The position numbers were made by a program, and so were the translations under genes. Positions 11,775 to 32,755 of a stretch of DNA of 56,640 bases are shown piece by piece. Each line of letters opens with the position of its first letter. Within the stretch, counting starts at the first letter, position 1. This DNA comes from Catajapyx aquilonaris (lineage: Eukaryota), in assembly GCA_000934665.2 (NCBI GenBank), contig JYFJ02002464.1, forward strand, positions 1 through 56,640, given 5' to 3'. The notes below the pieces were generated by a model that searched no databases, was not told the origin of the DNA, and worked only from the letters and a program-made list of their open reading frames with translations.

Positions 11775-14700
11775 TCACATTGGGCTGGTTCTGGCTGCAG
11801 TGATGGAGTCTCGGGATCCAGCCCGCATCAGTGCCATGTTCTGCATCCTTATGGAACTGCTGGGCCGCCTTTGCTCATCGTCCCCTTGAAACCCCTGATG
11901 GAAACCATGGATGGAAACAACAACAAATTAGTCATTTCACTTTGTTGGTTTTAATCAATTTTTACCTGATTAGTAATCCCTATGCTGTTCCTGCTTGCGA
12001 CGGACATGCTGCTCCTTGAATCCTGCCTGCCTGGCATGAACTGGGACATCCTTCGCTGCTTTTCCAGGACCGAGCTACGCCTCTGGGCTACTGCGTGGAG
12101 CGTGTCTCTTCGAAGGGACAGGTGCCGCATCACTGATGGGCTGCCTCCTGCGCCCTCTCCTGATACCAATGAGTTGAGCCTCTTCCTGACTGCAGCATCC
12201 AGGTTCCCGATTGGAACCTTCTTGTTGTTTGACTGTTGCCTATCCAGCTGTTGGATGGTCTTTCTACGGTCCAGCCTGTCTCTTCCAATGACTGGCTCGT
12301 CGTCATCTTCTAGTCCTGTCATCTGCTGGAGGTGATGCACGGCCTCCACAGCATTTTCTGGTGTTATGTTGCCATCCTTGTCAACAGCTTGCTTATTCTT
12401 GCAGCAGTCCAGTCTGGTCAAGGACAGAATGTGAGCAAAGGTCTCTTTACGATGGATGAACATTGCCACAAATTGAATGATCATGATCAGGGCAAAGAAG
12501 AAGACGAAGACAAGGCCAATGGGTTCCAGCTGCAAGTACTCCTTGTTCACAGTCACCTGTTGGATGAAAATGAAAAATTAATTTTGTCCTCTAAAAGAAT
12601 TGTATTCTTCATACCTCGTGTCCAAATTTTGCATAAGTCATGTTGACTTTCACTCCAAGGGGCCATTGGACGTGAATCATGTCCTTATTCAATTGCAGAA
12701 GGAATACGATCGTCACAAACAGGGAGTTCATCATGATGAATGCAAACACACAGAAGTCTCGCAATTCCTTCAAATCATTTTCCAGTTTTTTCTAATGGTT
12801 TCAGGTGGAAAGATGGATATGCAGCATCACAGAGCATGCAATGAAGATACAATATTGCATTAGATTAGACGGATAGATTTAAGCAAAATTACGTGATCTA
12901 CGAGCTAATGTCCAGTGCATCGTCTTTGACAAAAACTAATTTCAAGCAACATTTTAAAATAAAAACCTACTCTCTGCTCTTTATTTTCATCAATTGGATG
13001 CAGGTATTTTTTAATAAGCTCGTCCCAAAACTGTATCTCTGGAGTGGAAATGTAGTCCACAGCTCCAATTCTTATGCTCTTGTCTTCTATCCAGTAGGGA
13101 TTCTTCAGGTCATCCCGATATGTCCTCGGTTCTAAATTACATAGAGTTCAGGGAAATCCATTCATTAGGAAGTGAATTGAAAAGTATCACATGTGTCAGA
13201 AATCTTCAGCAATTATGTTACACATATTATATGACACATTATTAGCACCCATATGCTGTGGGAAACATAATACAGTATGTAGATGAAACACCATAATTAT
13301 ATTTCACCTACCAGTAACGGATTCCTTATCTGTCTCGTCATCCTCTTGCGACTCTACTGCAGCCTCCTCCGCCAAAGATGCCAAATGATCTGATGACAAA
13401 AGACCTCTGCCGGACATAGATTTTCTCCTCATCATTTGTGGATCAGAATTTCTCTCCAAGGAATCCATCCTTTTTGTCAATGTTTCCATAGAGTCGGCTA
13501 TCCTTAGCAACTGCTTTTTCTCATCAACAGGCTTCTCATGAGTGCAACACATGACTTTGAACAAGCCAGCCAAGCTGAATTCTATTGACCCTTCTTCATC
13601 CTTTCCATTGCCGGGCAGCTGGTTCAGGAAACCCAGGAGACCTGTCTTCTTGGCTGCCTTCTTGGCTTCCTCAGCTTCACGCTTCTCTTTTTCCACCTCC
13701 TTACAGGGGAGAAATGACATGCATTATACATCAGATTACATCTAATTGTTCCACATGCATTTTTGGCTGTCAAAGCAATACCAAGCTGTATTTTTTTACA
13801 GGGCCTTTCTAATCTCTCTACATCTGCTTAACAAATTGGCACATGCAATCTGTCATCTAACATGAATACATCATACAGTATAATTAAGTTACCTCTTTGC
13901 TCTTCTTTGTGGCTGCCTCCCTGGTACCCCAGGTGACGTTATTGAGGTTGAAGAGTGAATAGATCATGAGGAGCAAATACATCGATGGAACCACGCAGAG
14001 ATAGAGGAATCCATGCATCAAGCATGAAAATTCCTTTGGATGCATAATTGCTGTTATGACAAACACCATTATAATGAAGAACATGGACAGGCTGGAAGGA
14101 GCAAGTATTCCATCTCTTGTTATTTCCAGGATGATGCCAACTAACACAGCTACCATCACCAGTGCATAAAATGTACTAAGCACCTGGGCTACAAACAACT
14201 GGAAAAAATTTAATGGTGTAAAAGATCAACCCAGCACCACTTACACAGATGGAATTCAAACAACTCACCTGAAACTTAGATTCAAAGAAGTAGCATATAA
14301 CCATAAAGAGGAGGATCGGTATGACATTGTATTGGAAGGAGCTCCATTGGTCTATGTTGAATGCAGCCACGAATGCTCCCACCAACATTAGGAAGATTGT
14401 TCCTGGCCCAAGTATAGTGCCAACCATAAGCATGATCTGGTAGGAAACGTATGGCATGGAGATATTGTCATTGATCACAACAGTCCGCTTATAGTCCATT
14501 AATAGGTCCATGATGTTGGCCATGGTGCTGGGAACCCATCGCCTACGCTGATTGTAGAATTCATTGAAACCTTCAGGAGCATGTGTATAAGCATCACTTG
14601 CAGCAGAGTATTCTACACGGTAGCCTCTCTGAAGCAGGAGGGTGCATAGCCAACGGTCCTCACCTGCATAGAAGAGTATTAAAAATTTGTTTAAACAGCA

Positions 14701-17700
14701 ATAGGTACAAAGAAGTGCATGTAATGTTCTGGTCAAGTGCAGCTGCATTATTGCAGCATTTTATTTTCTCTAAAATAGTCATTTGAAATTAGACTCACCC
14801 TGATCATACTGAACGTAATCCCTTGCCTTTTCAGGCTTGATGGTGTACTTTGCCATTACATTTTTGTCCATGAGTGCTACAGCCCTAAAGAGCGAGAAGC
14901 ATCCTGGACTGCAGAGTACACATCCAATAACATGTTCCGTTGCCTTCTGCATCCAGTGACCAATGGCATATTCAAATTTTTGATACCAAACCATTGGCCC
15001 AGCTCCAATCGGGTGAATCCGTCCGCATGCAGCTCCTAGATTGCGATTCTTTTTCATCAGATCAATCAGCATGTGTACTGCATCTGGCTGAAAGTCAATG
15101 TCACCATCCAGGGCCAGAAGAAAAGTATTTTCTGCAACAATCGCCTTTCGTTCAACTGCTAGAGGCAGCTCCATCAGCTTGTGTCCCAGCAGGTAGTACA
15201 TGTACATTACCTGTAAAAAAATAAAATTGTTGTTTCTAGCAGTAAGCACCCAAATTAAGAATTGCAACATTTTGACAATACCTGGCTCCAACGCTTGCGA
15301 TGTCGTATCTTAGCCTTATTCTTAAGATGTACAATCATCTTGGTTTTTCCAGGAAGTGTCCACTCAAGACGTCCTCCATACGGAGTTGGAAATGCTGTTG
15401 GAGGTCGTACCCTCAGATTCAGGCCATGGACATGTGATGCAGCCTCATCTGTGGTCCTCATGAAGTCCTTCACATAGATGTTCACAGAATTCTCAGTCTC
15501 ATCTTCTTCGCTCATCACAAAGGCATCGTCAAAAAATATGTGTGTCTCAAACTCATAGTAATCTGGAACCACAACTTTCAATAGCTCTTGTGCATTTCTC
15601 ATTGCACTATGGTGTGAATCCATCCGCATGATTGACTTGAGCATTTCCATCATTTCTTCCCTGGTTTCGTGCCACATTGTTGCACAAGCGTAAATTCGTG
15701 GGATCTTATCCCTTTTGCGCACCTCACCTCCATCCTCAGCAGCATCAGTGACCATTTCAGCCAACACTGTTTTGCTCTTGGTCGTGTAATAATGGTCCAT
15801 AGGCTTTTCCATGTCATCCTTTTTGATCTCGCCTTCATCATCATCATCCTTCCTCCGGTTCATGGCCAATGACTGATCAACCAAAAATGCAGAATACATC
15901 GGAGCTGCAAATAACTTCTCAGTGGTTGCAAGACGCTCGCATTTGGGAGCCCATATATGCAGTGTAATCCAAGTCTGTGAGAACAGCCAGAAAAGCCAGA
16001 CATATGCATGCTGCTGAGAAATAAAGTTGTCGAGGAAATTTCCTAGAGGACATTCCCAGTACAAGTAGGGTGGCATCTGCCCATACATGAAGCAGGCATC
16101 CTCATTTCGGACTCCACATGCAGCTATTAGGAAGGTAATACCAGCAGGGACAGTCAGGCTGATAGGAAATGCGAAACTGAACCCTTGTATGCAAATTTTG
16201 CAGGCAAACTTTCCTGAAAACAAAAATATAACCAGTCATTCAAATTATCAACGTAGCAGATAGCATGCTGCTAAAAATTAGTCCATAAACTTACCAAATA
16301 CATAACAAAGCCAGGTGGTACCAACTTGAATCAAAAGGGTGTAAATGGCAGCATTGGCCCATGAGTAGTCATATGTAGCTTCATGGACAGGAGAGTTGCT
16401 GCTGGCCAAGTCAGAGAGTCTTCCAGGAAGGTCCGCCTGCACCTCAGTTGCATTAATATGATGCCTGTTGAAACTCTCAGAGAACATTTGAAATAGGTTT
16501 CCAATGTTCTCATTGTTCACATACAACAGTAGGAGCATGGACATGAAGAAAAGCATCATCTTCCATATGGAAATGAAGATGTAGGAGAAGTATCTTGTTT
16601 CCTGCAACCGTTCACTCACTCTTGCCATCTCTCTCACAATACCTGTAAATTCAGTGGCTACTAGTGATATTCTGAAGCATCAAGACACATCATGTAATAA
16701 CCCTGTGTAAGTCGAAAATTCTACTGATTAAAAGTGACATTTTAAAAGCTGACTGAGTCATACATTTTCTGATAAACGCTACATGAGAATATTACAACAA
16801 TCTCAAGTCACACAAGAAATTCACTAGCATTACATGCTATAACATTAATGCAACATCTAAATGTGCGCATGCTACTCATGTGCTCTCAGGCATTGCAATA
16901 TTATTTGAATTATTCCAATAAACCAAAAAAATATTTCGAGCCAGCCACTTTCCAATAAATATTTATGGAAAGATATACACCAACAAGATCCATACAACAA
17001 AACATTAATTTGTGCAATACTCACGAAGGGGAGAGTTCCTGTCCACATAGTTTTCCCACCAGGCAAATGAGATGAGGAATACTGATAGAGGAATGAGCCA
17101 CAGACTTCGGGCATTGTGGGTGTCCACCAGGGGCCATACGAAGAAACTAGTTGCTTGGGCGAGAATTGCCAATACGTCTATCACCACCTTTACTGCATAG
17201 AGCGGTTCAGTTGTGCTTCGTGACATCAAACCTACAAAGTGATTGTTTTTACACTTACCTCATAAATACACTATTGAAATACCGGTAGCATTTTTATGAT
17301 ACATCAATATTAGTCTTAACTAACCCAAGATCCCAGGCACAATGCACACGCAGTTGGTGAGCATGAGCCCTTTGATAATGTCAAGTTCTGGAAGAATCAT
17401 GAACACGAGGATTGCAAGACCCAAGGTGTGGAATGTTTCACAGACGAAGACCAGAAGGAAGTCCACAGGCATTGGTTTTTTCCAGGACTTGAACATGCAT
17501 ATTCTGGAAGACCGAAACAGAGTTTCCAACTCTGGAACCAAGTAGGCAAAGAGCAGGCACCAAATCCACTGGATTCGTTCTAAGTCTGGTATCTCAAATG
17601 TGAAGTCCTTGTCTGCTCCTGCAATAATAATTGCATCAACCACGCGGTCATTTACTGATTTTTCACACTCATTATGTTGCCATAATTATTCAGAAAGAAA

Positions 17701-18738
17701 GATTTGGCCATAAAAATAATATTTCCAGATTTCCCCACAATGTAACAGTAGTGAAAATTCACCAAAATTGTTGATTTTATTCATAACTCTATTTTAACTT
17801 ATTTTCTACTTGATAATTGGATTAAATTCAATGGCAATGTTTCATACATACCATATTTTTCCTTGCAGATGGGGACGGAGCGGTGGGGTCTGAGTTGGGA
17901 AGTCATGAGGAGCATGGTGCCCTTTGAGATCAGGCCACCACCAAGCACTATTGTGAATGTCAGGATGTACATAAACACTTTGAAAATCTTCATTATTGTG
18001 TCTGCAAGGCTTTGGTCTCTCATAGACCCTGAATCTTCCTTCGGAGGAGGATTTTGAAAAACGTCCCATTTTTTAATCGGCGATGATGCACTGCTGTTCC
18101 TGTTACTAATGAGAAAAGGAAGCATGATAGTTTTAGTGTCTAATGTATGCATGGGGAATTCAACAAAGCCTTCAAGAATATTAGTGGCAAATATACTAAC
18201 AGGAGTTGGTTCAAATCAACAAATAACTCTCTGGACAACCCTTATTATAACTCCTCTGACCATTATCACCAAGCATGATGGGCACAAATAATAATTTACG
18301 TGACCTGGTGTGACATACAGACAACTCATACACAAGAAAATCAGATATGATGAATTTTTCGGGAATTTTTCTGGGGATGGAGTCACCAAAAATATTTGTT
18401 GGCTAAAGCTAAAGATCGCCATCACAAAAAAACCTGCATTCACATATCAATCTAGGCTACTTTAACAAGGTGTGGCTTCCATCCCAGAATGGAAAATACA
18501 AAGAAATATGCGAATGGATTGCAAGTGCGTGTTAGCCGCACAAATGTGAAGTTGTCCTTATAGTTTTTCATCAGATTCATGTCACTTCTTAAAAAAATGG
18601 CGTTTTCACTTAATGTGTCAGATATACACTGAGATTTTCCTATCCTTACCTTGTTCCACATACGTTCTCTGCCAAAGGAGTGGTCTCATCTCCTGAAAAG
18701 TCATCTACAACCATGAATTCCCTCTCTAGATTCTCCAT
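11775..18738 (-). CDS. Chitin synthase, divergent tandem paralog with 14 coding exons and an intact frame
   Basis: Exons: 18738-18650, 18099-17852, 17618-17325, 17231-17025, 16642-16295, 16213-15282, 15210-14799, 14663-14269, 14198-13893, 13699-13312, 13131-12971, 12791-12615, 12556-11966, 11894-11775. Motifs [23 protein letters not shown] and TWGTRE are intact. The protein starts [22 protein letters not shown] and ends RTSPM*. Confidence 0.93.
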
Positions 18739-18902
18739 GGTTGAAGTGTTATGTCTGTAACGTCCTTCTAACTTATAGGACCTCCAGTATAGGCATGAGC
18801 CACTGGAATCACAAGCACCACATCATACACACTTTGTCAGAACAAAACTCTATGCAATAAAAGTCCCCAATATTGCAGAGTCTGTCTCAGCAGGAATGAA
18901 AG

Positions 18903-19036
18903 AGATAATCTACTCTGCCTTCCAAGATAAGGTCAGGATCAGCTGATAATAGTGTCCAAAGGTACACACAGGATGAGCATATAATAATATGTCAATGACG
19001 TCAATACCTATCACATTCCAGGTGTTGGATAGATAA
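18903..19036. promoter_or_regulatory. Cluster of five WGATAR sites plus a CRE palindrome upstream of the paralog ATG
   Basis: AGATAA at 18903, AGATAA at 18925, TGATAA at 18944, CTATCA at 19008, AGATAA at 19031. TGACGTCA at 18996. Confidence 0.45.
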
Positions 19037-21524
19037 CAGTTAATCCGTACCAATACGAAATAACGTTTCACAAGTTGATGCACCTGATGGATACCAGTCG
19101 CAACGCAAGACATGCTTACCAGGTACAGCCAATCACAAATGGGCCCCCACCCAAAATGGGCAATGTCACATATACTGCATAATATGCACCAGATGGCTTT
19201 AAAGGCGTCATCATCGTCATTTATCGCAACATTTTCCATATTTATAAGGAGTAGTCAGCTGTGAAGGAGACACTTCTGTTATGACCTAGAAATGGCACAC
19301 ATTCATTGAAGTAGAACAAAAATACGTAATAAACAAACAAAACATGTTAGTGGTAAAAGTAAGATTGGTTAATGTGTATAGAAATTGATAGCTTGAAGGC
19401 TGTAACACATCTTACAAGTGTAAAGCGGGATAAGTTGGGATGAAGTCATGATTTGTTCAAACTTACATCGCTAACTCCAACCAATAATATTCCCTTTATG
19501 AGAAATGGCGTAATTTATTTTCTGTTAATTTATTAGCATAGTGTGTAAAGGACGTGAGCAGGAAAGTTTAGAGAAAAACTCGTCATTTTGTGATTCATTA
19601 GGGGACTCCCCTTTGAAAGTGCACAAGGACAATTATTATTATCATGCAGAGATATTACTAAACAGACTGAGAGTGCTGTACACTATCATAACTTGTATTG
19701 TGTCACTTGCACCCAGCTGACACCATTTGTGTGTAAAATATTATTATTTTGTGAACCACTTTCCCAAGTCCTACCGAATTCTTTAAATCCCTGGAAAACA
19801 TATCCCCAGGCTTGTTTGCCATCATTATTTTATCCCAACATCTTCTGTTTGTGAGAGACACAGTCACAAATTAATTACAATAAGAAGCGGTTTTAACTTT
19901 GACACTGGCAGCTATGTAAAGGTGGTAATGAGGAGTAGTAGTGACGTAACCTCGTCGAGATGAATCAAGACGTTGCGTTGGCATGGCCACAAGATGGACA
20001 GTACTGGTGCAGTCATCCAAAAGTCATACAGATGACACCATCGTCACCTCCATCTCTCTCTACCATAAATTCATTTCTGCCCTTCCTTTCCAAGAAACAG
20101 ACTTTCATTCAGTTTTGCCATTACTTCCTATTATTTTTACCTGTGCTTTTTAAAAAAAATACCAATGCCATTTTAAGTGCACCAGATAATAAGTGGACCT
20201 GTAATCATGACTCGCCTGTCCTGCCCAATAATGTTAGCATTTAAAATAAATCGAGTACCATTGTGTAGAAAGGGGTATAGATAATATTTAAGTGCCACTG
20301 CCCTGAGAACAATAGGGAACATGATAGCAAAATCAAAGAAAGGGGGGGCGTAGCCAATACAGGAACAATTGGGATAACTATAAGAAGGGCCACTACAGGG
20401 GCTACGGCTACCCCACAAAGAAGTGAGCGAGTCTGTAACAAGGACATAGCAGAAAAGAAGTGAAGAGAAAGAAGAGAACGAGACAGAGAGTTGGAGTGAA
20501 CATCAAGCAGAGGGCAGTTAGTAACCAGAAACCAGCCAGCAACAGTTCGAGTAACATCCTGCAGCAACCTTGCTGCCACGACCACCCCACAAAGAAAGGG
20601 TGACTTGACATTAAATCAGCCACACCCTTTCTGCCAAGTAATGGTCAACAATGGGCATGAGTCTGTGTGTTATTATGACATATGATAAAAGACTTGTTAT
20701 AAAATGCTAGTAAATAAAGCTAATTATTGTGCATTGAGAACTGTCCTTGAATTGCTCTGTCTCTTATGGCCTGACGTTTAGCAGGAGGAAATGAACAATT
20801 GCTATTTGTTTCTCTCTTGCCCAGCTTTTCCATTGCTTATCACAAGGAAAGTGGAAGCATGATTATCGTATTCACTGACGTTTCAGTGTGCCAAGCAGTG
20901 TGCACAGGGAACTCACTGTGAAGGAAGTAATCTATCTAGTATTGTGTTGCAGTGATATTCCTGTACATTTCAACACTGATATTTTATCAACATGTCAATC
21001 CCAGATCTTCCTCCATCATTTTCCTTATTATGATATGACATTGCAAAGTCGTAATGTCACCACCACAAAATTTTGAATGTAAAGCTCTTAGGTTTTACAA
21101 GGTATTTTAAAAATTTATAGCAACATTCGATGTCTTGGTATAATTGACATGAACGAAACAAAAGTGCCACCATACCACATGACTACAAAAAATCAATATA
21201 AAAGTAAATTTTAAGAAATGTCAATCAACCAGTAACTTTTCATTTTTTTTTGTTTCATTGCTACGAACTTGGTTTCATAGATTTCTGGCAAATTATGTAA
21301 TTGTAATTAGGTTTATTTAGAAAGACTTCAATTCTAGGCGAATCTGATAACAATCTTAATATAATATCCAGCAGCCTTTATTCTCCACTTGGTAAAAACT
21401 ATACACAAAACTGCAGTCATTTTTTTATCGAAATAATCACCCGAAAAATAATATCATTAAGACACACAATCTCCATCCACTCATTTTAAAACTGAGTCAT
21501 CATCTTGTTGCCACCAAAAAAAAA

Positions 21525-24500
21525 TCACATTTGGCTGCTTCTCCTTGTTGGAATCGGTCCTCCCATGCCTCCTCCGCCCATCTCCAGATCATGGAAGGAA
21601 ACAGACGAGCGTATTCCAGCTTGGGTCAGGTTCTGCATCCTCACTGACCCTCTGTCGTCATCACTTTCATATGCCTGGAAATATGTCAATTAAGGCCTAA
21701 CCAAATGCCACAGCATGACTTGAACAACATACTACACGCTCTCTTGTAAACAGACAACTTAGTTAACTACCTCAAAATTTTACTTTGGGTTCTCTCTCAC
21801 CTGATTGGCAATTCCAACAGGCTGGAAGACGTTGCCATTTGTGACAGAGCTCCTGCTGCGGGAACCCTTCTTGTTGTACTCATTGTTGGCTCCCAGCGTC
21901 TGCATCTGGGATGTCCTCCTCCTCTCGGCCAGAACTGAGTTCCGCCTCACTGCCAGTGCTTTGATAGTTTCCCTTCGAATAGAGAACTGCCTCATGTTAC
22001 CCAACACAGGGGTGCCCTCTGGCCCACCGTCTGCCTGGATGGACATGAATCTCTTCCTAAAGGCCACATCTAGTGTCCCAATGGGACGCTTCTTCTGCTT
22101 CTGTTTCTCCAGCTGGTGGATTGTCCTTCTGCGATCGAGCCTGTTTCGTCCTGAACTTGACTCATTCCCATCTTCATCATCCAATCCAATCAGTCTCTGG
22201 AGGTTACGTGCTATTTCGACAGCATTCTTGTCGATGAAGGCATCTTCAGAAATGTCATCCACTTTGCGGTTGCAGCATCCCAATTCAGTGGAGGCCAAGA
22301 TATGTGAGATGGTGCCAAATCGATGGAAGAACATGGCCACGAACTGGATGATCAGGATCAAGGCGAAGAAGAACACGAATACGAGACCAATGGGCTCCAG
22401 CTGGAGGTACTGCTTAGAGATGATCACCTAATTGGAATAAGGAAGTGCTTTCAAAAGGTATTCTTCACTAGAAATTCTGAGCCCTAACTTGTTGCACCTC
22501 TAACCTTTGCGTTATCAACAGAATGAAGCAAGTAAAAAATTTGTGCAACCGTACCTGATATCAATGAATTACACCTAATAAATAATTTACTTCTGGTGGT
22601 ATGAATAATGAACATTCAAGAATGGGTCTGTTATAACACATTATGTTGAAATCAATTCAATATTATCGGTCACAAAATATAAGCACCACCTTGCATTATA
22701 TGCTCTGAAAAATTGCTCAAAATTTTCATGATTGTAGTACAAATGCAAAGAGTCATAATATTTTTAAAGCATAAAAGTCCATCACATACAATATGCAGGA
22801 ATGGTATAACAAGTGCAAGAGACATGACAAGAATATGAAATTGAGAGTGCACCGTATCTAGGCATAGTAAATCAATCGCATGTGTCTCAGAAGGATAAGT
22901 GCTCTCCTGTATTCTGATAAGAAATGTGCATTGCAGAAGTGCTGCTAAATATAATCAATTTTTCAGAGAAGAAAGATAAATCACCTGCGATTGAAGGGTA
23001 AGAAAATGCATTCACGATAATAATTTTTTACTGGCAAGGAATAATCTAGTGTGTATTATAATTATAGGAAACAAAAAATACCTCTCGATAGTTCTGGAAA
23101 AATTACTTTAAAATGAAGTAGCTGTTATCTTCACACACTGTGTGAATGCCATTACATTAGTCAGTTAAATGTCTCCAAGGCAATCCCCCTGGGAAACTTT
23201 GTTCATGTACAATATTTATATTTACACTGACAGTTAGAAACTTCCATTTTTTTATACACCTGATAACCTGTTGTTACTCAAAACACAACCACAAATTTCA
23301 TGCAAATCCATCCAATTGTTGTAAATTGGACTGTACAATGTTACTCTCTGTGATACCCTTTCTATGTACAATATGCACTGACTCCTCTATACCACACAAG
23401 TCTACTTACTCACTGGTCCCCCTGAAAAAGAAGGCTTTCTGATTTACTGCCAGCAAACAAGATCTTTAAAAAAAAAACAACCAATGTGAAGTGACCAGGA
23501 TTAGCCAAAAGATGAACACAACTCACACAAAAGCAGAAAAGTCAGCCAGACCAGTCACCAGAGAGAAGTGAAAATAACGAGGGGGGTGGAATAAAACGGC
23601 AAGGCAGCAGTGTTGCAGAAAGAGAGAGACAGAGAGTGAATAATATCCCGGGGGAGGTGTGCCCAAAGTTCAGTTTGTACCTGTTCGGTCTCCTCCACAA
23701 CTGTGATATTGGTCTTAACCCCGAGGGGCCAGTTAATGTGAAGTTCATCCTTATTGAGCTGTAGCAGGAACACGATAAGGATAAAGAGTGCATTGAACAT
23801 GAAGAAGGCAAAGACTGACTTGTTCCTCAACTCCTTCAGTTCACTGGCTATTCTGGCCTGGAAATAATAGACACACTGTTTTGAAGCATTGGGATTGCAT
23901 GTCCGGCTTGGGCGTTGGGAGGTTTGGGATGGCGAGAAAAGGTAACCTCTGGCTACAAGTCCGCTGGTCATGATCGCATGAAAACAGAGTCGCAAGCACC
24001 ACGCACGCGAAAACCCAGATCACTCAATAAGGGGGGGACCTTACCTCAGAATCATCTGGTGAGAAAGAAATGTTAAGCTTCACCCCAAGTGGCCATCGGA
24101 TGTGAAGCTGGTCCTTGTTGAGTTGCAGCAGGAACACAATCGTCACAAACAGGCAGTTGATCATAAAGAACGAAAACACACTCCTGTCTCGCAAGTCTTT
24201 CAGACCAAGTGCGATTCGTTTCTGATTGTGTGCAGTGGTGGTGGTGATGTCGCATGCAAATAAAAGGTGGCGGTTTCATGCAGGTCATATATGTACAGAG
24301 TCAAAGAGTGAGACAGAGAGAGACTGAAAAATTGGGACTGCACGGGATTTAACGAAACAGACATGGAAACCTGTAAAAAACCAATCAGTAATACATCCGG
24401 GACCAAATTAATGAATGGTGCACTTCGTAAGTCACAATTATGAGCGGACTTGCCAGAGGAACTGTCTTCTTGTCAGCATGCTAGCAAGGAGACTTTTCAC

Positions 24501-27500
24501 TGCCCTTTGTGTCATACACCTCTCCATAAAAATTACGCTTTTAAAGCAATTTTCATTAAACATAGAGCTGGTTGAAAAATATTTTTCCTTTGGGTGTATG
24601 GTTATTTTAGCAATAGAAGATTTGACAGCTAATCTCACAACATTGTTTCACGCAGTTTTACAGAGGAATGCAAAATAATACACTGCACAAAGGGTAGTGA
24701 AGTGCATTGTTGTCCCCTCATCTGTCAGATGTCTATATCACAGCAGCTACATTATTTTGTACTTGGAACACATGCATTAATAAATTTGGTGTCACCTCAA
24801 AAATTATAGGACAAGTATTTGACACCAATATTCCTCGTCAGACTTGAATAAGCTTCCAGCAGACTAATGCATTGTAATTGCATGGAGAGTCTAGCTTACC
24901 TGCTGCTCAGGATTATCATCAATAGGGTACAGGTACTTCTCCAGCAGGTCTTTCCAGAATTGGATTTCAGGCCCTGACAGGTAATCAACTGCTCCTCTCT
25001 TCAAGCTCTTATCCTCAATCCAGTAAGGGTTGATCAGATCATCTCGTTCTTGTTTCGGTTCTGAATAGACACAACCATTGGCGTTAGGTACGTTGGATCC
25101 TGAACAGCCGTAACGTGTTGGATCAACCTTAACATGTCTCACCTAGTGACTCTGTGTCCTGGTCGTCGTCGTCATCCACCTGGTCCGCTTCTGCAGGATC
25201 CTCAGGTAATGATCCTAAATGATCCCCAGATCCCACTGCACCAGCACCACCAGCCCTGACAGAAGCATGGGAAAGAGACCTCCTTCGCATCCCCAGCTGT
25301 CCGTGTGGGTCCAGAGCCCTCTCTATTGTGTCAAGACGTTTCGTCACAGTCTCCAAAGAGTCAGCTATCCTCATGAGCTGCTGTTTCTCATCCACAGGTT
25401 TGTCATGGGTGCAAAGCATGCACTTGAAGAGGTTGGCAAAACTGAACTCAATTGACCCTTCCTCGTCCTTGCCATTTGGAAGGTTCAAGAAGGCCAAAAG
25501 CCCGTTCATCTTCGCCTTCTTTTTGGCTTCCTCAGCATTACGTCTGTCTTGCTCCAATTCCTAAAGAATGGCCAGATTTGGTTTTAGATGTCCAGGTTAT
25601 AGAAAAAGGTACAAATCAACGCAGTACTGACCACCTTCCTCCTTGAGTACACTTCCCGGGTTCCCCAAGTGACATTATTAAGGTTGAAGAGTGAGTAGAT
25701 CATGAGGAGCAAGTACATGGAGGGCACCACACACAGGTAGAGACACCCATGCATGATGCAGTATAACTCCCATGGATGCAAAACAGCCGTCACCACAAAT
25801 GTCAGGATAATGAAGAATAAGGACATGCTGGACGGAGCAAGCACTCCGTCCCTTTTTACCTCCAGCATGATGCCCACTAACACTGCGACCATCACCAGGG
25901 CATACATCGTGCTTAGAATCTGAGCTAGAAACAACTACAACCCAGTGTTAGTGCACGCATTAACACAATCGTTAACATTCTGTAAATAGTTGCAGACACT
26001 GGTAGTCACTTATTCAATCCACCAAGGGGAAACTTATTTAATGACCATCTACTAAAAAATACGGCTATTCAGATTTTCTTCATTCCGCTAAAACCAAACA
26101 GCAATGCAAAAGCGCAAGCAGGCAAAGCAGCAAGCATTTTTAAAAAACATCCTTACCTTCTTGGTCTTCTTGGTCTGGACCTCTCGAGTACCCCAGGAAA
26201 CAACGTTTAGGTTCGTGAGTGAGTAGATGATCAGGAGCAGGTACATGGAAGGGATGGAGAGGAGGTAGAGGCCTCCAGGTATAATGCACATGAACTCCTG
26301 GGGATGGAGGCATGCAGCAATAAAAAATGATCCGGAGAGGGCTATCAAGAAGATAGCTGATGGAGATCCTATGCCGTCCTCACCCAGCTGCAGCGCGGTA
26401 CCAACTATCACAGCCATCATAATCAGGGCATAGGCCGTTGATAAAATCTGAGCCACCAGGATCTGCATGCCACATTGCAAAACATAAATCGCACACAGAT
26501 AAGCACAAGCCGCACAAAACACTGAAGTTCTTTGGGACAATGCAAATGTTTGCATCGCAGCAACTCACCTGAATGTTAGACTTGCACACAAAGCAGACCA
26601 CCATAAAGAATAGAATTGGAATGATGTTGTAGTAAAACGAGGTCCAGTTGTCTATGTTGAAAGCAGCTACAAAGGCTCCCACCAACATAAGGAAGATGGT
26701 GCCTGGTCCAAGGATCGTACCAGCCATAAGCATCATTTGGTAAGCAATGTATGGCATTGAGATGTTATCGTTGATCTTAATAGTTCGCCTGTAGTCCATC
26801 AGAAGATCCATTATGTTGGCCATGGTGCTGGGAACCCAACGCCTACGTTGGTTATAGAATTCATTAAAGCCTTCAGGACAGTGTGTGTAGGCATCACTTG
26901 CAGCTGAGTATTCCACACGGTAGCCTCGTTGAAGAAGGAGCGTGCATAGCCAACGATCCTCACCTAGGTACAAATACAAATTATTCGACATAACACTCCA
27001 AAATACAACATTGTTATTGACTAGTGAATTGCAACTCACCCTGATCATACTGCACGTAATGTCTGGGTTCATCCGACTTGGTGGTGTATCTCCTCATGAC
27101 ATTATCATCCATAAGGGCCTTTCCTCTAAAAAGGGAGAAGCACCCTGGACTACAAAGGACGCACCCAATCATATGCTCAGTTGCCTTCTGCAGCCAATGA
27201 CCAATGGCGTATTCGAACATTTGGTACCACACCATCGGCCCACTCCCAACTGGATGGATCCGACCACAAGCGGCTCCAAGGTTACGATTCTTCTTCATCA
27301 GATCAATCAGAAGTTGCACCGCATTGGCCTGGAAGTCAATATCTCCGTCCAAAGTCAAAAGGAAGGTGTTCTCTGCCACAACCTCCTTGCGGTCAACTGA
27401 TATCGGCAGTTCCATCAGCTTGTGTCCCAGGAGGTAGTACATGTACATCACCTGAAAAGTGGAATCATAAATATCGCACTGACACACTACTTCACTTTCA

Positions 27501-30500
27501 TGAACAGCCTGTAAAAATCCAAACATTTGTGTTGCTTACCTGGCTCCAACGTTTACGATGTCGTATCTTGGACTTGTCTTTCAGATGGGCAATCATTTTA
27601 GTCTTTCCAGGTAGGATCCATACAAGACGTCCACCGTAAGGTGTTGGGAATTTCTTTGGAGGTCGTACCCTCATGTTGATGCCATGAACATGCGATGCAG
27701 CTTCATCCATAATGGACACAAGAAGCTGCACAAAACGGTTGACTACATTCTCGTCCTCGTTGTCATCACTGATTTCAAAAGCGTCGTCAAAGAATATGTG
27801 GGTCTCAAATTCATAGTAGTCAGGATCCACTATCTTCAGGTACTTCTGTGCATTACGCCTGGCACTTTGGTCTTCATCCATCCGGAGAATTGACTTCAGC
27901 ATCTCCATCATCTCTTCCTTCGTTTCATGCCACATTGTTGCACATGCGTAGATGCGAGTGATGCGGTCAGAGTTACGAATGTTGCTCTTTCCACCAGCTG
28001 GTGAACCACTGGACTCTGTCATCACTGATATGGTTTCATAATATTGAGACATTTCCGCATCCTCTATTGGTTGGTCCAGTAAATCCTCCGTTTTTACATC
28101 GCATTCATCATCTCGGCTCCGGTTCATGGCCAAGGACTGATCAACCAAGAATGCTGAATACATGGGCGACACAAACAGCTTTTCAGTGGAAGCAAGACGC
28201 TCGCATTTTGGGGTCCATATGTGGAGAGTAATCCAGGTTTGTGACAGGAGCCAGAGGAGCCAAACCCACGCATGCTGTTCGGAAATGAAATCATTGAGGA
28301 AGTTTCCACGAGGGCATTCCCAGTAGAGGTAATTTGGAAGCATCCCATAAAAGAAGCAAGAGTCTTCATTGCGGATCCCACAAGCCGCTATCAGCAAAGA
28401 GATTCCCACTGGGATCGTCAAACTGACAGGAAATGCAAAGCTGAACCCTTGGATGCAGATCTTGCATGCAAATTTGCCTGAAAGGAGGAACATAAATAAA
28501 ATAATTACAGTGAATCACTTGATATAAATGCATCAGACTCTCACCGAAAATGTAGCAAATGTAGGCAGCCACTATCTGAACCATGACGGTGTATATAGCC
28601 GCGCTGGACCATGACTTATCCACCAGCACCTCATGGAATGGAGTAGCTCCATTTGGAAAGTCAGATGGACTTCCAGGAAGGTTCCTCTGCAACTCAGTCA
28701 CGTTGAGGTCATGGGTGCTGAAGCTCTTTGTGAACATCACAAATAGATTCCTGACATCCTCTTGGTTCACATACATTATTATCACCATTGAGGCAAAGAA
28801 AGCAATCATCTTCCATACAGAGATGAAAATGTAAGAAAAGTAGCGGGTGTACTTCAAACGTTCCTTCACTTTCGCCAGCTTTTTCACGAAACCTGCAATT
28901 GACAAATGCCGAGCTGATAACGCTTTCAAAATCCATGTGCAATAATTTATTTGAAATTTCATTGCCTTGCAAGATGGCCAGTCATTATTTCTCAAATACT
29001 AAATTGCTCACATGTGAAAAGTAGAAATAGAATTACCTATTGGTGAAGCCTTATCCACGTAGTTTTCCCACCACGCAAAAGAAATGAGAAATACAGAAAC
29101 AGGTATGAGCCACAGGTTGTGGTTCTTGTGGCTGTCAACAAGCGGCCAAAGGAAGAAGCCACTTGCTTGGGCCACGATGGCCACAATGTCTACAATCACT
29201 TTCAAGCCACATCGAGACTCAGACCTGCTGCGAGAGAGAAGACCTGCAGAACAAAATAAAGAATTAGCAAAATATTATAATGTCAAGGATAATGCTGCAA
29301 TTAGTAAGATACTGACCCAAGATTCCAGGCACAATGCACACACAGTTGGTGAGCATGGCCCCCTTGATGACATCAAGCTCAGGAAGGATCATGAACACGA
29401 GAAGTGCAAGACCCACAGTGTGGAACGTCTCACAAATAAATACCAGGAGAAAATCTCCAGAAAGCGGCCTCTTCCAGGACTTGAAGACACATATTCTTGT
29501 GGCTCGAAAGAGAGTCCCCAGCTCTGGAACAAGAAATGCAAAGAGCAGGCACCATATCCACTGGATGCGCTCCAGATCTGGTATGTCGACTGTGAATTCT
29601 TTGTCCTGTCCTGAAATAGTAAGTAACATTAAGTATTTTCCCTTGGTATAGTCAACGAGGATTTAAAAGGTAATGATGCTTACCCCACTTTCGGTTGCAA
29701 TAGGAAATGTTTCGATGGGGTCTTAGTTGAGAAGTCATAAATAGCATCGTTCCTTTCGTAACAACACCTCCAACAAGCACAACCGCAAATGTGAGAAGGT
29801 ACGTGAACACTTTGAGCATCTTCACTGTTATTTCCATGCACCTCTGGTTGACCATAGAACCAGAGTCGGCCTCCGGAGGGAGAATCCGAAACACGTCCCA
29901 TCCTTTTGTTTCAGATTGACTGTGCTGACTGCAATGGAAAGAAAAAAATTAGTTACTTCATACATTTTTTGTCTATATTTTTCACACAATCAGTACAGAA
30001 CTTGCTCAGCATATGAATTATTTTTTTGGAATATAATTACCGGTCTACTATAGACAGTGGTTTAATCACAACAATTGGTATCTGCCATGAATGTTACATG
30101 AATGTTATGAGAGAACGAAAGGTGTGACCTGTCATTTTCCTTAAAAAAAACATGACTTATTGACAATTGTGAGGGAGAAATAGCCCGTTATAATATTACC
30201 TTTGTTAAAGAGGGTCAGAAAAATAAGTGATCCATTAATAAAATCTCATTCACTCATGAGCTCATTATAATGGGCTATTAAATTAGTTAAAAAGGATCAA
30301 GTATGAGTCAGAAAAATTAGTGTTTCATGAATAAAATATATCTTCAATCACGAGCAACTGCGACACCGATAATTTCAGAGCATCAATTTAAATGCCTGAA
30401 ATGGTTCCACTCTCTGACCTAGAAATCTCTTCAACGCACACACATCATCACTCATCAGTGCCTGCAAAATAAGCCCAAACCCCATTAGTAACGAAAATGT

Positions 30501-32755
30501 AATGTTCTGGATGACCTCAATTATTGCATTTCCTTTTCTTCGAGCTGCCACAGAGAGTCAGTGTTCCAGGCAAGCGAGTAAGAAAAAAAAAAAGGTAAAA
30601 GGGAGAGTGGTGATGGTGGCCATGAGACAAAACTTCAGCCTTGGATTCGGGAGCGGACGTCCGGCCCTTTCCGGACATTTTATTTACCACTGTGCTCCAA
30701 GAAGGAAATTCCTTCTGGACATAACAAGCCCTAGACCCAGCTTCGAATGGTGGTCACCCAACTTTCACCAGCTGCCTACGCAGCTATACCAGGAAAAAAA
30801 AATGACATCACTCCCAAACCAGTACCGGTGACTTGAACTCCAGAATGGATCATGATCCCAGTTACGAAACAATCAGTACACAAAAAAACGGACATATGCA
30901 AAAATGGCATGGAAAATGTTTGGTTGTGGTGGTGGGGGACTTATAAAGAAAATAAAGTCACGCAAACTATAGCAAACAGGAAGGCTTCAACTTTCTGGAG
31001 CGTGAGGATTGGCCACTTCCACGGGGACCTCGTTTTGAAAACTTTCGCCTTTTGCTGCCTTCTCTTTTATGGGTCGACCAACCGCCAATTTTTATATGCC
31101 AACCAGGTGGTGTCATCTCCTGAATCAACCAACTGGAGTGAACAATCCATGTATATTTAGGGCATAATTATAGGGTCAATGTTCCGTGACGGAAGTGCTC
31201 TAAATCCAGAGTTGACCTCATGGGAAGAAAAAGAAAAGACCGCAAAGATGTGTTATTATTACAGCATGATCTGAAGTACCGCGAGTGGGCGGGATTTTGC
31301 GCAAAAAATAAAGTCGCAGGTGAAGGTCTCTCAGGTTTTCAATGCCATACAAAATCGTCTTTGAATAGAGGAGGGTTCCAGATGGGCAGATTCAAAGGTC
31401 AAAGAGGCCCTCTTGCATACAAATAGCCTCCTCAGATCTATACTTGTGTATCAATTTATGTACAGTACTTAGACTCAGTTACAAGAGTATGGTTGGCAAG
31501 ATGTGTCCATTAGAAATCTAGGTCCTGTGTGATAATTCAAAGTCCTGCTTCCTTTTCCAGAAGCTAACCACACCCAAATAAGAGGCCGCGCCCATTTTCT
31601 CTGGCCAGTACACCCTGGCAACAATCCCCCGTTAATTCCGTCTGTGCACGAAACGATATGACCAAGGACGACCGGCGGGACACTAATCTCTGGTCGGCCC
31701 AAAGTGGTGCAGTACACACACTCATTTAATTGGACAGGGCGTGTCTCAATAGACAATAAAAGCATCAGGAAGTGGGCATTCATCCATCAGCCTCGAAATA
31801 TTTTCTTGGGTCTGTAACCTTCAATAAGGCAGATATGGAATGTGCTTCAGTCAATAAATATTATCTTGTCAATAGAAGACTATACTAAAAATAGTCGGAC
31901 TTTCATTTCCTGGAGAAGTCTCTGCTTTTCCCAGATAAACAACGTGCCATGACAAGGAATTCGCATCGGTCACTTGCTGCTTGCGTAAACAAGTTGCACT
32001 CCAGAAAAGTTTGCAAACTGGGGCAAATTGCATGCACCAACACGGTATATAATAGCAAACGACAGAAACATTGTTCAGTATACACAGTACATAAAAAGGT
32101 GACATTCTGGCCTTTTAGAAGGTCGAGTCATAAACAACCAGGCGACTTTTAAAATCAAGACTATAGACTTTGAGGATAGAAAAATATCGTGGGCCGTGAA
32201 TTCCCAAGTAGACCAGCTTGTACTGATCGGCCTTTCAAGGACGGAAAGCGACTTGGAAGATGGAGAGAGAGAAAAAAGGCTGAGAAGTACCGTTACCAAC
32301 TGCACATACTCAACTCACGTATGTGTAACTGTACTCGAACTTAACGGTATGCGTATATAAAAACACATCGAGAGTGCAAGTGTTGAGATTTTAATTACCT
32401 TCACGGGTTTCTGGTTCGCTTTTATTACACTAACCGGATTATTTAGTGGAACACTTTCTTTAACATATGTATACACAGTACAAGGTGTTCGGATAATTTT
32501 GAATTTGTTGCAAATTTTTCATGATGGTCGAGTGATTCGCGAAATAAGTGTAGCAATATATGCCCAGCTATTTTCACAATTCGATTTCTAATAACTCAGC
32601 AGAGGTTACACCAATTGAGTTGCATCATTGGCTGTTATGTTCTACTTGTTTTCTTACCTTCCACCATAAATATCCTGGGTCAGAGGTGTTGTTTCGTCCC
32701 CTGAAAAATCGTCAGGGTCCATCAGGTCCCGGTCCAGGTTTTGCATGCTGGGCAT
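21525..32755 (-). CDS. CHS1: Chitin synthase 1 (class A, kkv-like) with two pairs of alternative exons
   Basis: Exons: 32755-32658 ([32 protein letters not shown]), 29928-29684, 29610-29317, 29243-29037, 28892-28545, 28477-27540, 27451-27040, 26963-26569, [26462-26157 or 25934-25632], 25560-25143, 25060-24900, [24221-24045 or 23857-23681], 22427-21801, 21674-21525. Motifs [31 protein letters not shown] and SWGTRE are present, with a charged coiled-coil-like segment after the 5-TM cluster. Confidence 0.95.
23681..23857 (-). CDS. CHS1: CHS1 alternative 177-nt exon, downstream copy (8a/8b-type)
   Basis: cag|[59 protein letters not shown]|gtac; 59 aa, phase 0-0. Confidence 0.92.
24045..24221 (-). 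CDS. CHS1: CHS1 alternative 177-nt exon, upstream copy (8a/8b-type); its frame is absent from the ORF track
   Basis: cag|[59 protein letters not shown]|gtaag; 59 aa, phase 0-0. Confidence 0.92.
25632..25934 (-). CDS. CHS1: CHS1 alternative 303-nt exon (end of 5-TM cluster to WGTRE), non-canonical copy
   Basis: tag|[36 protein letters not shown]...[36 protein letters not shown]|gtcagt; open frame, phase 0-0. An alternative donor 3 nt earlier is possible. Confidence 0.85.
26157..26462 (-). CDS. CHS1: CHS1 alternative 306-nt exon (end of 5-TM cluster to WGTRE), canonical CHS1-like copy
   Basis: cag|[38 protein letters not shown]...[37 protein letters not shown]|gtaagg; 102 aa, phase 0-0. Confidence 0.92.

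Follow-up and report, generated by a model that had tools for sequence, protein, structure and literature searches.

The CHS1-type chitin synthase gene of Catajapyx aquilonaris carries two homologous exons, A and B, arranged in tandem directly after the exon coding the QRRRW motif (Table 1). We consider it highly probable that they are ancient tandem-duplicated alternative exons of an arthropod CHS1-type gene, most likely spliced in one at a time. Either product would keep the same catalytic domain, and the two would differ, by homology to the yeast enzyme, in TMH3, in the exit-gate helix TMH4, in IF3 (lining the channel top) and in the WGTRE motif. Exon A is the version that is strongly conserved in arthropod CHS1, exon B retains an older, CHS2-like sequence, and the choice between them would be tissue-specific. 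The gene (gene 1) and its tandem duplicate (gene 2) are found on contig JYFJ02002464.1, of which positions 1 to 56,640, the whole stretch of DNA analysed, are called the window here.

Table 1. Coordinates of the CHS1 features in the window (slashes in splice sites mark exon borders).
Feature	Position	Strand	Description
Constitutive upstream exon (gene 1)	26569..26964	-	GEDRW...QRRRW and two hydrophobic helices; donor 26569/gt; 5' boundary approximate (tblastn)
Intron before exon A	26463..26568	-	106 nt; gt 26568-26567, ag 26464-26463
Exon A	26462..26157	-	306 nt, 102 codons; acceptor ...gcatgcag/, donor AAG/gtaagg
Intron separating A and B	25935..26156	-	222 nt; contains 11-nt element 26088-26098
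Exon B	25934..25632	-	303 nt, 101 codons; acceptor ...gggttgtag/, donor GTG/gtcagt
Intron after exon B	25561..25631	-	71 nt; contains partner 11-nt element 25577-25587
Constitutive downstream exon	25261..25560	-	coiled-coil region, begins ELEQDRR; 3' boundary approximate
First 177-nt alternative exon	24221..24045	-	AG/GT-flanked, phase 0, 59 codons
Second 177-nt alternative exon	23857..23681	-	AG/GT-flanked, phase 0, 59 codons
Gene 2, tandem CHS1 duplicate	about 18074..11987	-	8 kb downstream in the window
Single B-type exon of gene 2	13893..14198	-	joints 14198/14269 and 13698/13892 in run X1

Exons A and B are both open, of phase 0-0 and flanked by AG/GT. Verification of their coordinates and splice sites upheld the first-pass annotation of this DNA, which had described two such homologous exons of 306 and 303 nt spaced by a 222-nt intron. 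The upstream exon closes at 26569 (...ATT CAG/gt) and, with exon ends at 26569, 26462, 26157, 25934, 25632 and 25560, the four junctions predicted earlier fit the splice sites. The two exons code 53 identical residues out of 99 (54%; BLASTP E 2e-38), a similarity far beyond chance. Each features three hydrophobic stretches and a carboxyl terminal SWGTRE (A) or TWGTRE (B); of the about three helices previously ascribed to each exon, the third corresponds by yeast homology to the interface helix IF3, which is not membrane-spanning. The signature of exon A, an A-type exon specific to arthropods, is YLLSIPSMY. Exon B, of the ancestral or CHS2-like B-type, has DGVLAPSS and YLCVVPSMY, and keeps all motif residues (HPxE, PSMYLLL, NLNxVxWGTRE). 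Compared with A it has a weaker donor and a weaker polypyrimidine tract, and the donor is ambiguous (25632 or 25635), a second in-frame site AAG/gtggtc at 25635 giving an exon of 300 nt. Similar length, equal phase, intact splice sites and significant homology, all found for the A/B pair, are criteria for tandem-duplicated, mutually exclusive exons in the accessible text of PMC3228551. As the length of each exon is divisible by three, inclusion of both or of neither keeps the frame and exclusivity is not frame-enforced.

The same gene codes the 177-nt pair known from insect CHS1 (Tribolium 8a/8b, Drosophila kkv, Bactrocera, planthoppers), present as two phase-0 AG/GT exons (Table 1), as the earlier reading had noted. 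This is likewise a tandem-duplicated, equal-length, equal-phase, membrane-associated segment, as described in the accessible parts of PMC3619095 and PMC6355952. It differs in that it lies after the coiled coil and codes one helix, whereas the A/B pair directly follows the QRRRW exon and codes the inhibitor-resistance site in addition to the gate helices, IF3 and the WGTRE motif.

The host gene is an arthropod chitin synthase of family GT2 that belongs to the CHS1 (kkv) clade. GEDRW and NQRRRW are found in ORF 26380..27093, and the QRRRW exon matches Pfam Chitin_synth_2 with 42.1 bits (cut-off 27). Exon A in isolation scores 15.4 bits, under the cut-off, and isolated exon B has no match, which is attributed to exons too short for the family model. 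A catalytic-region tree of 50 rows places gene 1 and gene 2 within the CHS1 clade (29 rows, SH-aLRT 97), together with Tribolium CHS1; Manduca CHS2 and other CHS2-like rows fall outside it.

The A-then-B pair is ancient and present in distant pancrustaceans. Two WGTRE segments were found in 6 of 120 proteins of one sample and in 1 of 99 of another, always with the A-type preceding the B-type. These two-copy models come from a cricket (Gryllus), a stick insect (Dryococelus), a thrips (Frankliniella fusca), a wasp (Diachasmimorpha, RefSeq isoform X2), an ant (Acromyrmex), a lobster (Homarus) and a crab (Chionoecetes). Other pancrustacean records carry one type each, with exon position, order and A- or B-type signatures that match those of the window. 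B-only forms are known from lobster, mitten crab, shrimps, thrips, ants and bees; they include the 'chitin synthase isoform B' of Frankliniella occidentalis, Thrips palmi X3, Penaeus chinensis X2, Palaemon X2, Temnothorax, Augochlora X3, Diachasma and Fopius, the RefSeq X-isoforms being computed models. In the mitten crab Eriocheir sinensis, isoforms X1 (with B) and X3 (with A) are distinguished by 75 of 1574 aligned columns, which fall exclusively within four blocks that correspond to the A/B exon and to the 59-residue (177-nt) exon. Homarus americanus X2 is what the two-copy model becomes when A and one 59-residue exon are removed. The proposal that the exons are alternatives used one at a time is borne out in relatives by such A-only and B-only isoforms, in the mitten crab from the same gene. 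Exon B is found joined with either 59-residue exon in records of other species, which makes up to four products possible, as the earlier reading had expected.

The CHS1 of many lineages (beetles, flies and moths in the two protein samples) is A-only, and the A/B pair was not found in the sampled beetles, flies and moths, Tribolium included. Five ant models are about 100 residues shorter and have no WGTRE motif; they may include neither A nor B. A metagenome scan with exon B retrieved 6 loci of 46-59% identity; each has a single exon copy, so none shows the tandem arrangement, and none comes from a close relative.

The region that would be exchanged was delimited with an HMMER alignment between Tribolium CHS1 and yeast Chs1 (7xs6), in which the exon corresponds to yeast residues about 864-973, the first half of the alignment having low posterior probability. 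By this homology the exon would span TMH3, the mobile gate helix TMH4, the interface helix IF3 and the WGT motif. According to the accessible text of PMC10409773, the span includes the yeast gate residues M886, F911, I914 and L918 (4 of the 6 exit-gate residues by homology), the channel-lining Y925, Y945 and S949, and IF3 (934-963), and in the yeast WGTKG motif the substitutions W969A and G970A give inactive enzyme. The first-pass annotation had supposed that the polymer-exit region is swapped, and this placement of the channel gate helices and of the WGT motif agrees with it. The benzoylurea/etoxazole resistance site is also inside the exon, occupied by Ile in A and by Val in B. By residue count, the Ile within S-I-PSMY has number 1043 in the mosquito protein P0070; the tick protein P0157 has Val at this position, as is also stated in the accessible text of PMC13219254. 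As the swapped module holds this site, the A and B isoforms might differ in inhibitor sensitivity; more generally, they would be expected to differ in their gating, in their handling of the product or in their response to inhibitors.

The B-type sequence resembles that of CHS2 (CHS-B), the insect midgut paralogue. CHS2 of Manduca, beetle and moth has a single exon-equivalent with DGxLAPSS, YYIT[IV]PSMY and NLNNVSWGTRE, like B, and in the exon tree these exon-equivalents, like the B exons, are placed outside the A clade. They are coded by separate genes that fall outside the CHS1 clade in the catalytic tree, whereas exon B of the window, like gene 2, belongs inside it. The A clade, with support 100/98 and 38 of 108 rows, includes exon A.

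Gene 2 has a B-type exon only, and it is to this exon that exon B is most closely related. The two genes are sisters in the catalytic tree (support 97; 99 in a second tree) and the two exons are sisters in the exon trees (99; 100/96), implying that the ancestor of gene 1 and gene 2 already had B. Their identity is 80% over 94 columns; in the exon-by-exon comparison of the two genes it is 76%, inside the 50-85% range of the other gene 1/gene 2 exon pairs. They have in common the unusual YLCVVPSMY. Purifying selection is evident on both copies of the pair: exon A is 93% identical to the exon of the orthopteran Anabrus, and exon B compared with the gene-2 exon gives dN 0.17, dS 0.99 and dN/dS 0.17, a ratio that spans both branches jointly, so that part of the constraint could be on the gene 2 side. 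The dN/dS that had been suggested as a check on the 303-nt exon is thus well under 1. Such a low ratio at near-saturated silent sites implies that B has been constrained since an old duplication and, judged from its sequence, exon B is not a relic.

RNA cover was sought in the only run found, X1, whose kind is unrecorded and whose word share is 0.20; its contigs were compared over 11900-31899. They are spliced and identical to the window. Gene 2 is well covered with deeper contigs and CHS1 thinly, with the bin 25240-25906 empty and, among the pieces listed, no joint near the A/B pair, which is uninformative either way on exon B. We infer mutually exclusive use of A and B in this organism.

Decay of exon B into an unused pseudo-exon, with only A spliced here and the function of B moved to gene 2, is improbable. 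It would account for the absence of RNA cover on B (within the thin cover of CHS1), for the weaker donor and polypyrimidine tract, and for the many sampled lineages that show A alone in CHS1; the B-type exon of gene 2, spliced and with deeper contigs, could be the substitute. It does not account for 101 codons that stay open, for the conservation of the motif residues, for intact acceptor, donor and both phases, nor for a dN far under the expectation for a neutral branch as old as the dS indicates. The similarity to gene 2 could also mean that in this lineage exon B is not an old partner of A, and that gene conversion either copied it from gene 2 to CHS1 or homogenised the two copies. The 80% identity, compared with at most 61% to B exons of other species, and the common YLCVVPSMY point in that direction. 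Nevertheless, this origin is very unlikely: with dS about 1 any conversion would be old, the identity is not exceptional among the exon pairs of the two genes, the likeness is explained without conversion by the whole genes being sisters, and the A-then-B order and exon borders equal those of distant species.

Inclusion of A and B together, yielding an enzyme with a duplicated gate module, deserves equally little credence. It would be in frame, and seven public models, one of them a RefSeq isoform, contain both exons. Of these seven, five (all but Chionoecetes and Diachasmimorpha) also contain in tandem both 59-residue exons, whose mutually exclusive use is accepted, and this points to annotation read-through. 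In addition, A-only and B-only forms exist in the same or sister species, and joint inclusion would place twice in one protein the gate helices and the WGT motif that is essential in yeast. The original argument, that inclusion of both would duplicate helices and WGTRE and that the exons are hence exclusive, is nonetheless weakened, since the frame is kept with both exons or with neither, public two-copy models exist, and the shorter ant models may have neither exon.

A candidate element for the choice between the two exons is found in the flanking introns. The A-B intron and the post-B intron carry a perfect 11-nt complement (26088-26098 with 25577-25587), whose downstream element overlaps a branch-point-like site, ctaaaac. 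Shuffling gave a complement that long 8 times in 2000, and both the MFE and the centroid fold retain the stem. As a lead, this pairing would loop out exon B and favour splicing of A to the downstream exon. Complements of the upstream intron with the middle or the downstream one do not exceed chance (1509 of 2000 shuffles each; longest upstream-middle complement 7 nt), and the fold of the whole region is not unusually stable (z -1.25). Control of exon choice by RNA pairing is marked by competing complementary elements in introns, conserved in evolution and one for each alternative exon. In Dscam, 14-3-3 zeta and Mhc, competing intron RNA pairings choose exclusive exons (accessible text of PMC4691838). 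In contrast to these systems a single pairing was found here, and no matching selector that loops out A was found in these introns.

The pair had been taken as apparently undescribed. As worded this is not supported: the pair is already visible in RefSeq and GenBank records, including isoform B of F. occidentalis. Searches of openly accessible paper texts turned up no description of a second pair of alternative exons in this place. The F. occidentalis isoform entries presumably stem from Suzuki et al. 2017 (J Pestic Sci 42:93). The A/B records of other species are mostly computed models, and no paper discussing them was found in the searchable literature. Exon B of the window is 50-61% identical to those of pancrustacean records, and is distinguished by its sister copy in the adjacent duplicate gene. 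The pair is missing from the sampled classical models (Tribolium, moths, flies), which may explain why chitin synthase papers, in their searchable text, give only the 177-nt pair.

A broader reading, tentative and to which we assign a minor probability, is that the A/B choice was the original arthropod route to a cuticle-type and a CHS2-like (gut or soft-matrix) enzyme from one gene. Exon B would be the ancestral, metazoan-like gate module and exon A an arthropod innovation that predates the chelicerate/mandibulate split. CHS2-like paralogues would have arisen repeatedly from CHS1 duplicates keeping only B, and the window, where gene 1 has A and B and its tandem duplicate has B only, would show this process in cis. 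The intron pairing would help to set A as the default, and the isoforms might differ in inhibitor sensitivity. The swapped segment is not peripheral, as by homology it includes four of the six gate residues, the channel-lining IF3, the essential WGT motif and the one position to which resistance against benzoylureas, etoxazole and related inhibitors maps. If gating or inhibitor binding differ between the isoforms, this bears on the origin of CHS2-like genes and on how decapods, most of which have a single CHS gene according to the accessible text of the review PMC8002005, produce both cuticle and gut chitin. Resistance genotyping would then also be affected in species with the pair, such as thrips, Hymenoptera, Orthoptera and decapods.

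The window's two chitin synthase genes lie in tandem on the minus strand, as located by tblastn, the queries being Tribolium CHS1 and a protein of Ischnura. The CHS1-type gene (gene 1) features the homologous exons A and B, whose positions, splice sites and open reading frames (phase 0-0 in both) agree with the first-pass annotation; their peptides are identical at 53 of 99 residues (E 2e-38). An alternative in-frame donor of exon B is possible at 25635. They are preceded by an exon coding GEDRW and QRRRW, whose 3' end is at 26569, and followed by one that starts at 25560 with residues ELEQDRR. The 177-nt mutually exclusive pair known from CHS1 (8a/8b; a 59-residue protein segment) is likewise present in gene 1, as had been annotated.

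Positions and boundaries of the chitin synthase genes and exons in the window
Feature	Position	Strand	Remarks
CHS1-type gene (gene 1)	about 32737..21800	minus	tblastn
Exon A	26462..26157	minus	306 nt; acceptor gcatgcag|, donor AAG|gtaagg
Exon B	25934..25632	minus	303 nt; acceptor gggttgtag|, donor GTG|gtcagt
177-nt pair, first exon	24221..24045	minus	gene 1
177-nt pair, second exon	23857..23681	minus	gene 1
Second chitin synthase (gene 2)	about 18074..11987	minus	tblastn
B-type exon of gene 2	13893..14198	minus	single homologous exon
177-nt-type exon of gene 2	12612-12791	minus	single

The A/B pair is plainly present in the public protein records of many species and this kind of feature is not new. 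With exon B as query against longer proteins, 148 of 223 candidates matched; 120 of the matches were listed, and the six best score about double the remainder. These six, of the 120 proteins examined, have two tandem WGTRE segments, the A-type first and the B-type second (Gryllus bimaculatus, Frankliniella fusca, Diachasmimorpha longicaudata isoform X2, Homarus americanus, Chionoecetes opilio and Dryococelus australis); a seventh two-copy protein, from Acromyrmex echinatior, is found among 99 further proteins. B stands in place of A in Thrips palmi X3, Penaeus chinensis X2, Homarus X2, Eriocheir sinensis X1, Palaemon X2, Temnothorax, Augochlora X3, Diachasma X1 and X2, Fopius, Halocaridina, Oratosquilla, and the F. 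occidentalis "chitin synthase isoform B, partial", whose segment recurs in an unnamed full-length protein. Note that the last ~38 residues of the partial F. occidentalis record (P0024) belong upstream of its own start; the sequence looks circularly permuted or concatenated and the record needs caution. Searches of the open literature found only the 177-nt pair and no description of the A/B pair; the protein records do not bear out its annotation as apparently undescribed. The window contributes a new and divergent case of the pair, from an arthropod without close relative in the protein collection (nearest identity 74-77% over a 326-residue exon), and an informative arrangement, the tandem duplicate having kept the B module only and the parent gene both.

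Mutually exclusive use of A and B had been proposed. Between the computed Eriocheir isoforms X1 (B) and X3 (A), 75 of 1574 aligned columns differ, and these fall without exception into four blocks that correspond to the A/B exon and the 59-residue exon; Homarus X2, also computed, corresponds to the lobster's two-copy model minus A and minus one 59-residue exon. Some gene models that contain both A and B speak against strict exclusivity. Five ant CHS1 isoform models (P0177, P0182, P0183, P0184, P0194), about 100 residues shorter and devoid of WGTRE, may result from skipping of both. Because B occurs with either 59-residue exon in public proteins, the four combinations of the two pairs are plausible. 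Steric exclusion between A and B is unlikely because their intron has 222 nt, and surveillance by reading frame cannot act on the choice. An 11-nt stretch of the A-B intron (26088-26098) is perfectly complementary to 25577-25587 in the intron after B, which overlies a branch-point-like site, ctaaaac. Among 2000 dinucleotide shuffles of these two introns, 8 gave a complement of at least that length, compared to 1509 of 2000 for the longest complement of each of the other two intron pairs. The stem is present in the minimum-energy and centroid folds of the 611-nt stretch, whose overall stability is not unusual (z -1.25). Its formation would loop exon B out and place the A donor beside the downstream acceptor. 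A second perfect 11-nt complement links 25943-25953, in the branch-point region of the B acceptor, with 25875-25885 inside exon B. As parts of the A/B choice, both complements are leads only.

Solved structures include none of an arthropod enzyme; yeast Chs1 (7xs6) matches best in sequence (E 1.6e-10), and the A/B exon aligns to its residues ~864-973, with posterior probabilities that are low over the first half of the alignment and become good at about 925. According to the yeast structure paper (PMC10409773), the channel is formed mainly by TMH1, TMH3-4 and TMH6, the closed exoplasmic gate consists of L819, M886, F911, I914, L918 and F1098, and TMH4 is the mobile element in gate opening. The same paper assigns Y925, Y945 and S949 to the lining of the cavity's polar top, IF3 to residues 934-963, and the start of the swapping loop to the WGTKG motif, where W969A and G970A are inactive. 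By this alignment and these assignments, the A/B pair exchanges the counterparts of TMH3, TMH4, IF3 and the WGT motif, including four of the six gate residues. Two of the "three hydrophobic helices" first attributed to each exon are membrane helices by homology to yeast Chs1, while the third is an interface helix.

The swapped segment also holds an inhibitor site. The Ile of S-I-PSMY in the mosquito protein P0070 is residue 1043 by residue count, the number of the Culex I1043F substitution (PMC13219254), and aligns to the channel-lining yeast S949. This site, which that paper assigns to helix 5, following the catalytic domain, is Ile in exon A and Val in exon B, in gene 2 and in most B exons of other species. 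Ticks carry Val at the equivalent position, in agreement with SVPSMY in the tick protein P0157, and are still impaired by etoxazole (PMC13219254), which argues that Val alone is not a resistance state.

In the exon tree of 108 rows, from which the second Dryococelus copy, a very long row, was left out, A-type sequences of spiders, scorpion, tick, millipede, crustaceans and insects form one clade (38 rows, support 100/98). The other rows make up an unresolved grade, for which 94 columns are too few: B exons, canonical CHS2 of moths and beetles, CHS2-like sequences of damselflies and mayflies, and copepod, springtail, mollusc, tunicate and fish sequences. B-type and CHS2 sequences have DGxLAPSS, YY[IV]T[IV]PSMY and NLNNV[ST]WGTRE in common. 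We infer that B is probably the older form, retained, and A an innovation of arthropod CHS1; if A arose by the exon duplication that made the pair, the pair would be as old as the arthropods. The chelicerate and myriapod proteins listed, from searches not designed to detect a B isoform, include none.

The nearest relative of exon B is the B-type exon of gene 2 (80% identity over 94 columns; 76% over 99 residues by tblastn). They are sisters in exon trees of 82 rows (support 99) and 108 rows (100/96). Trees of the catalytic region (~600 residues) also group genes 1 and 2 as sisters, with SH-aLRT 97 in 59 rows and support 99 in 50 rows, among them Manduca CHS2 and further CHS2-like proteins; in this second tree both genes are within the CHS1 clade (29 rows, support 97). 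The gene 2 branch is five to seven times longer than that of gene 1. Because both kinds of tree give sisters, gene 2 is a lineage-specific duplicate, derived from a CHS1 gene in which the B exon was already present, and has retained B only. The Neodiprion "chs-2-like" protein (P0074) is inside the hymenopteran CHS1 clade of the catalytic trees and has a B-like exon; it may be a second CHS1 duplicate that kept the B module alone.

The sister exon of gene 2 allows the selection test suggested for the 303-nt exon to be carried out within the window. Its outcome for exon B against the gene 2 exon (dN 0.17, dS 0.99, ratio 0.17) combines both branches and is not a figure for B alone. Four other exon pairs of genes 1 and 2 have ratios of 0.05-0.08 (dS 1.3-3.6); a fifth (24900-25061) gave no usable dS. 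Silent sites are near saturation and exon B is still stop-free with every conserved motif, which would not be expected of a neutral relic of that age.

Run X1, the only sequencing run found for the window, has spliced contigs identical to it. Joints 14198/14269 and 13698/13892 show that the B-type exon of gene 2 is spliced into RNA, and word depth is greatest (about 30) in the spliced gene 2 contigs. Coverage of gene 1 is thin and not informative for exon B either way. A 396-nt unspliced X1 contig (24241-24636) lies inside the intron that precedes the first 177-nt exon and could represent pre-mRNA, carried-over genomic DNA or a transcript that is not annotated.
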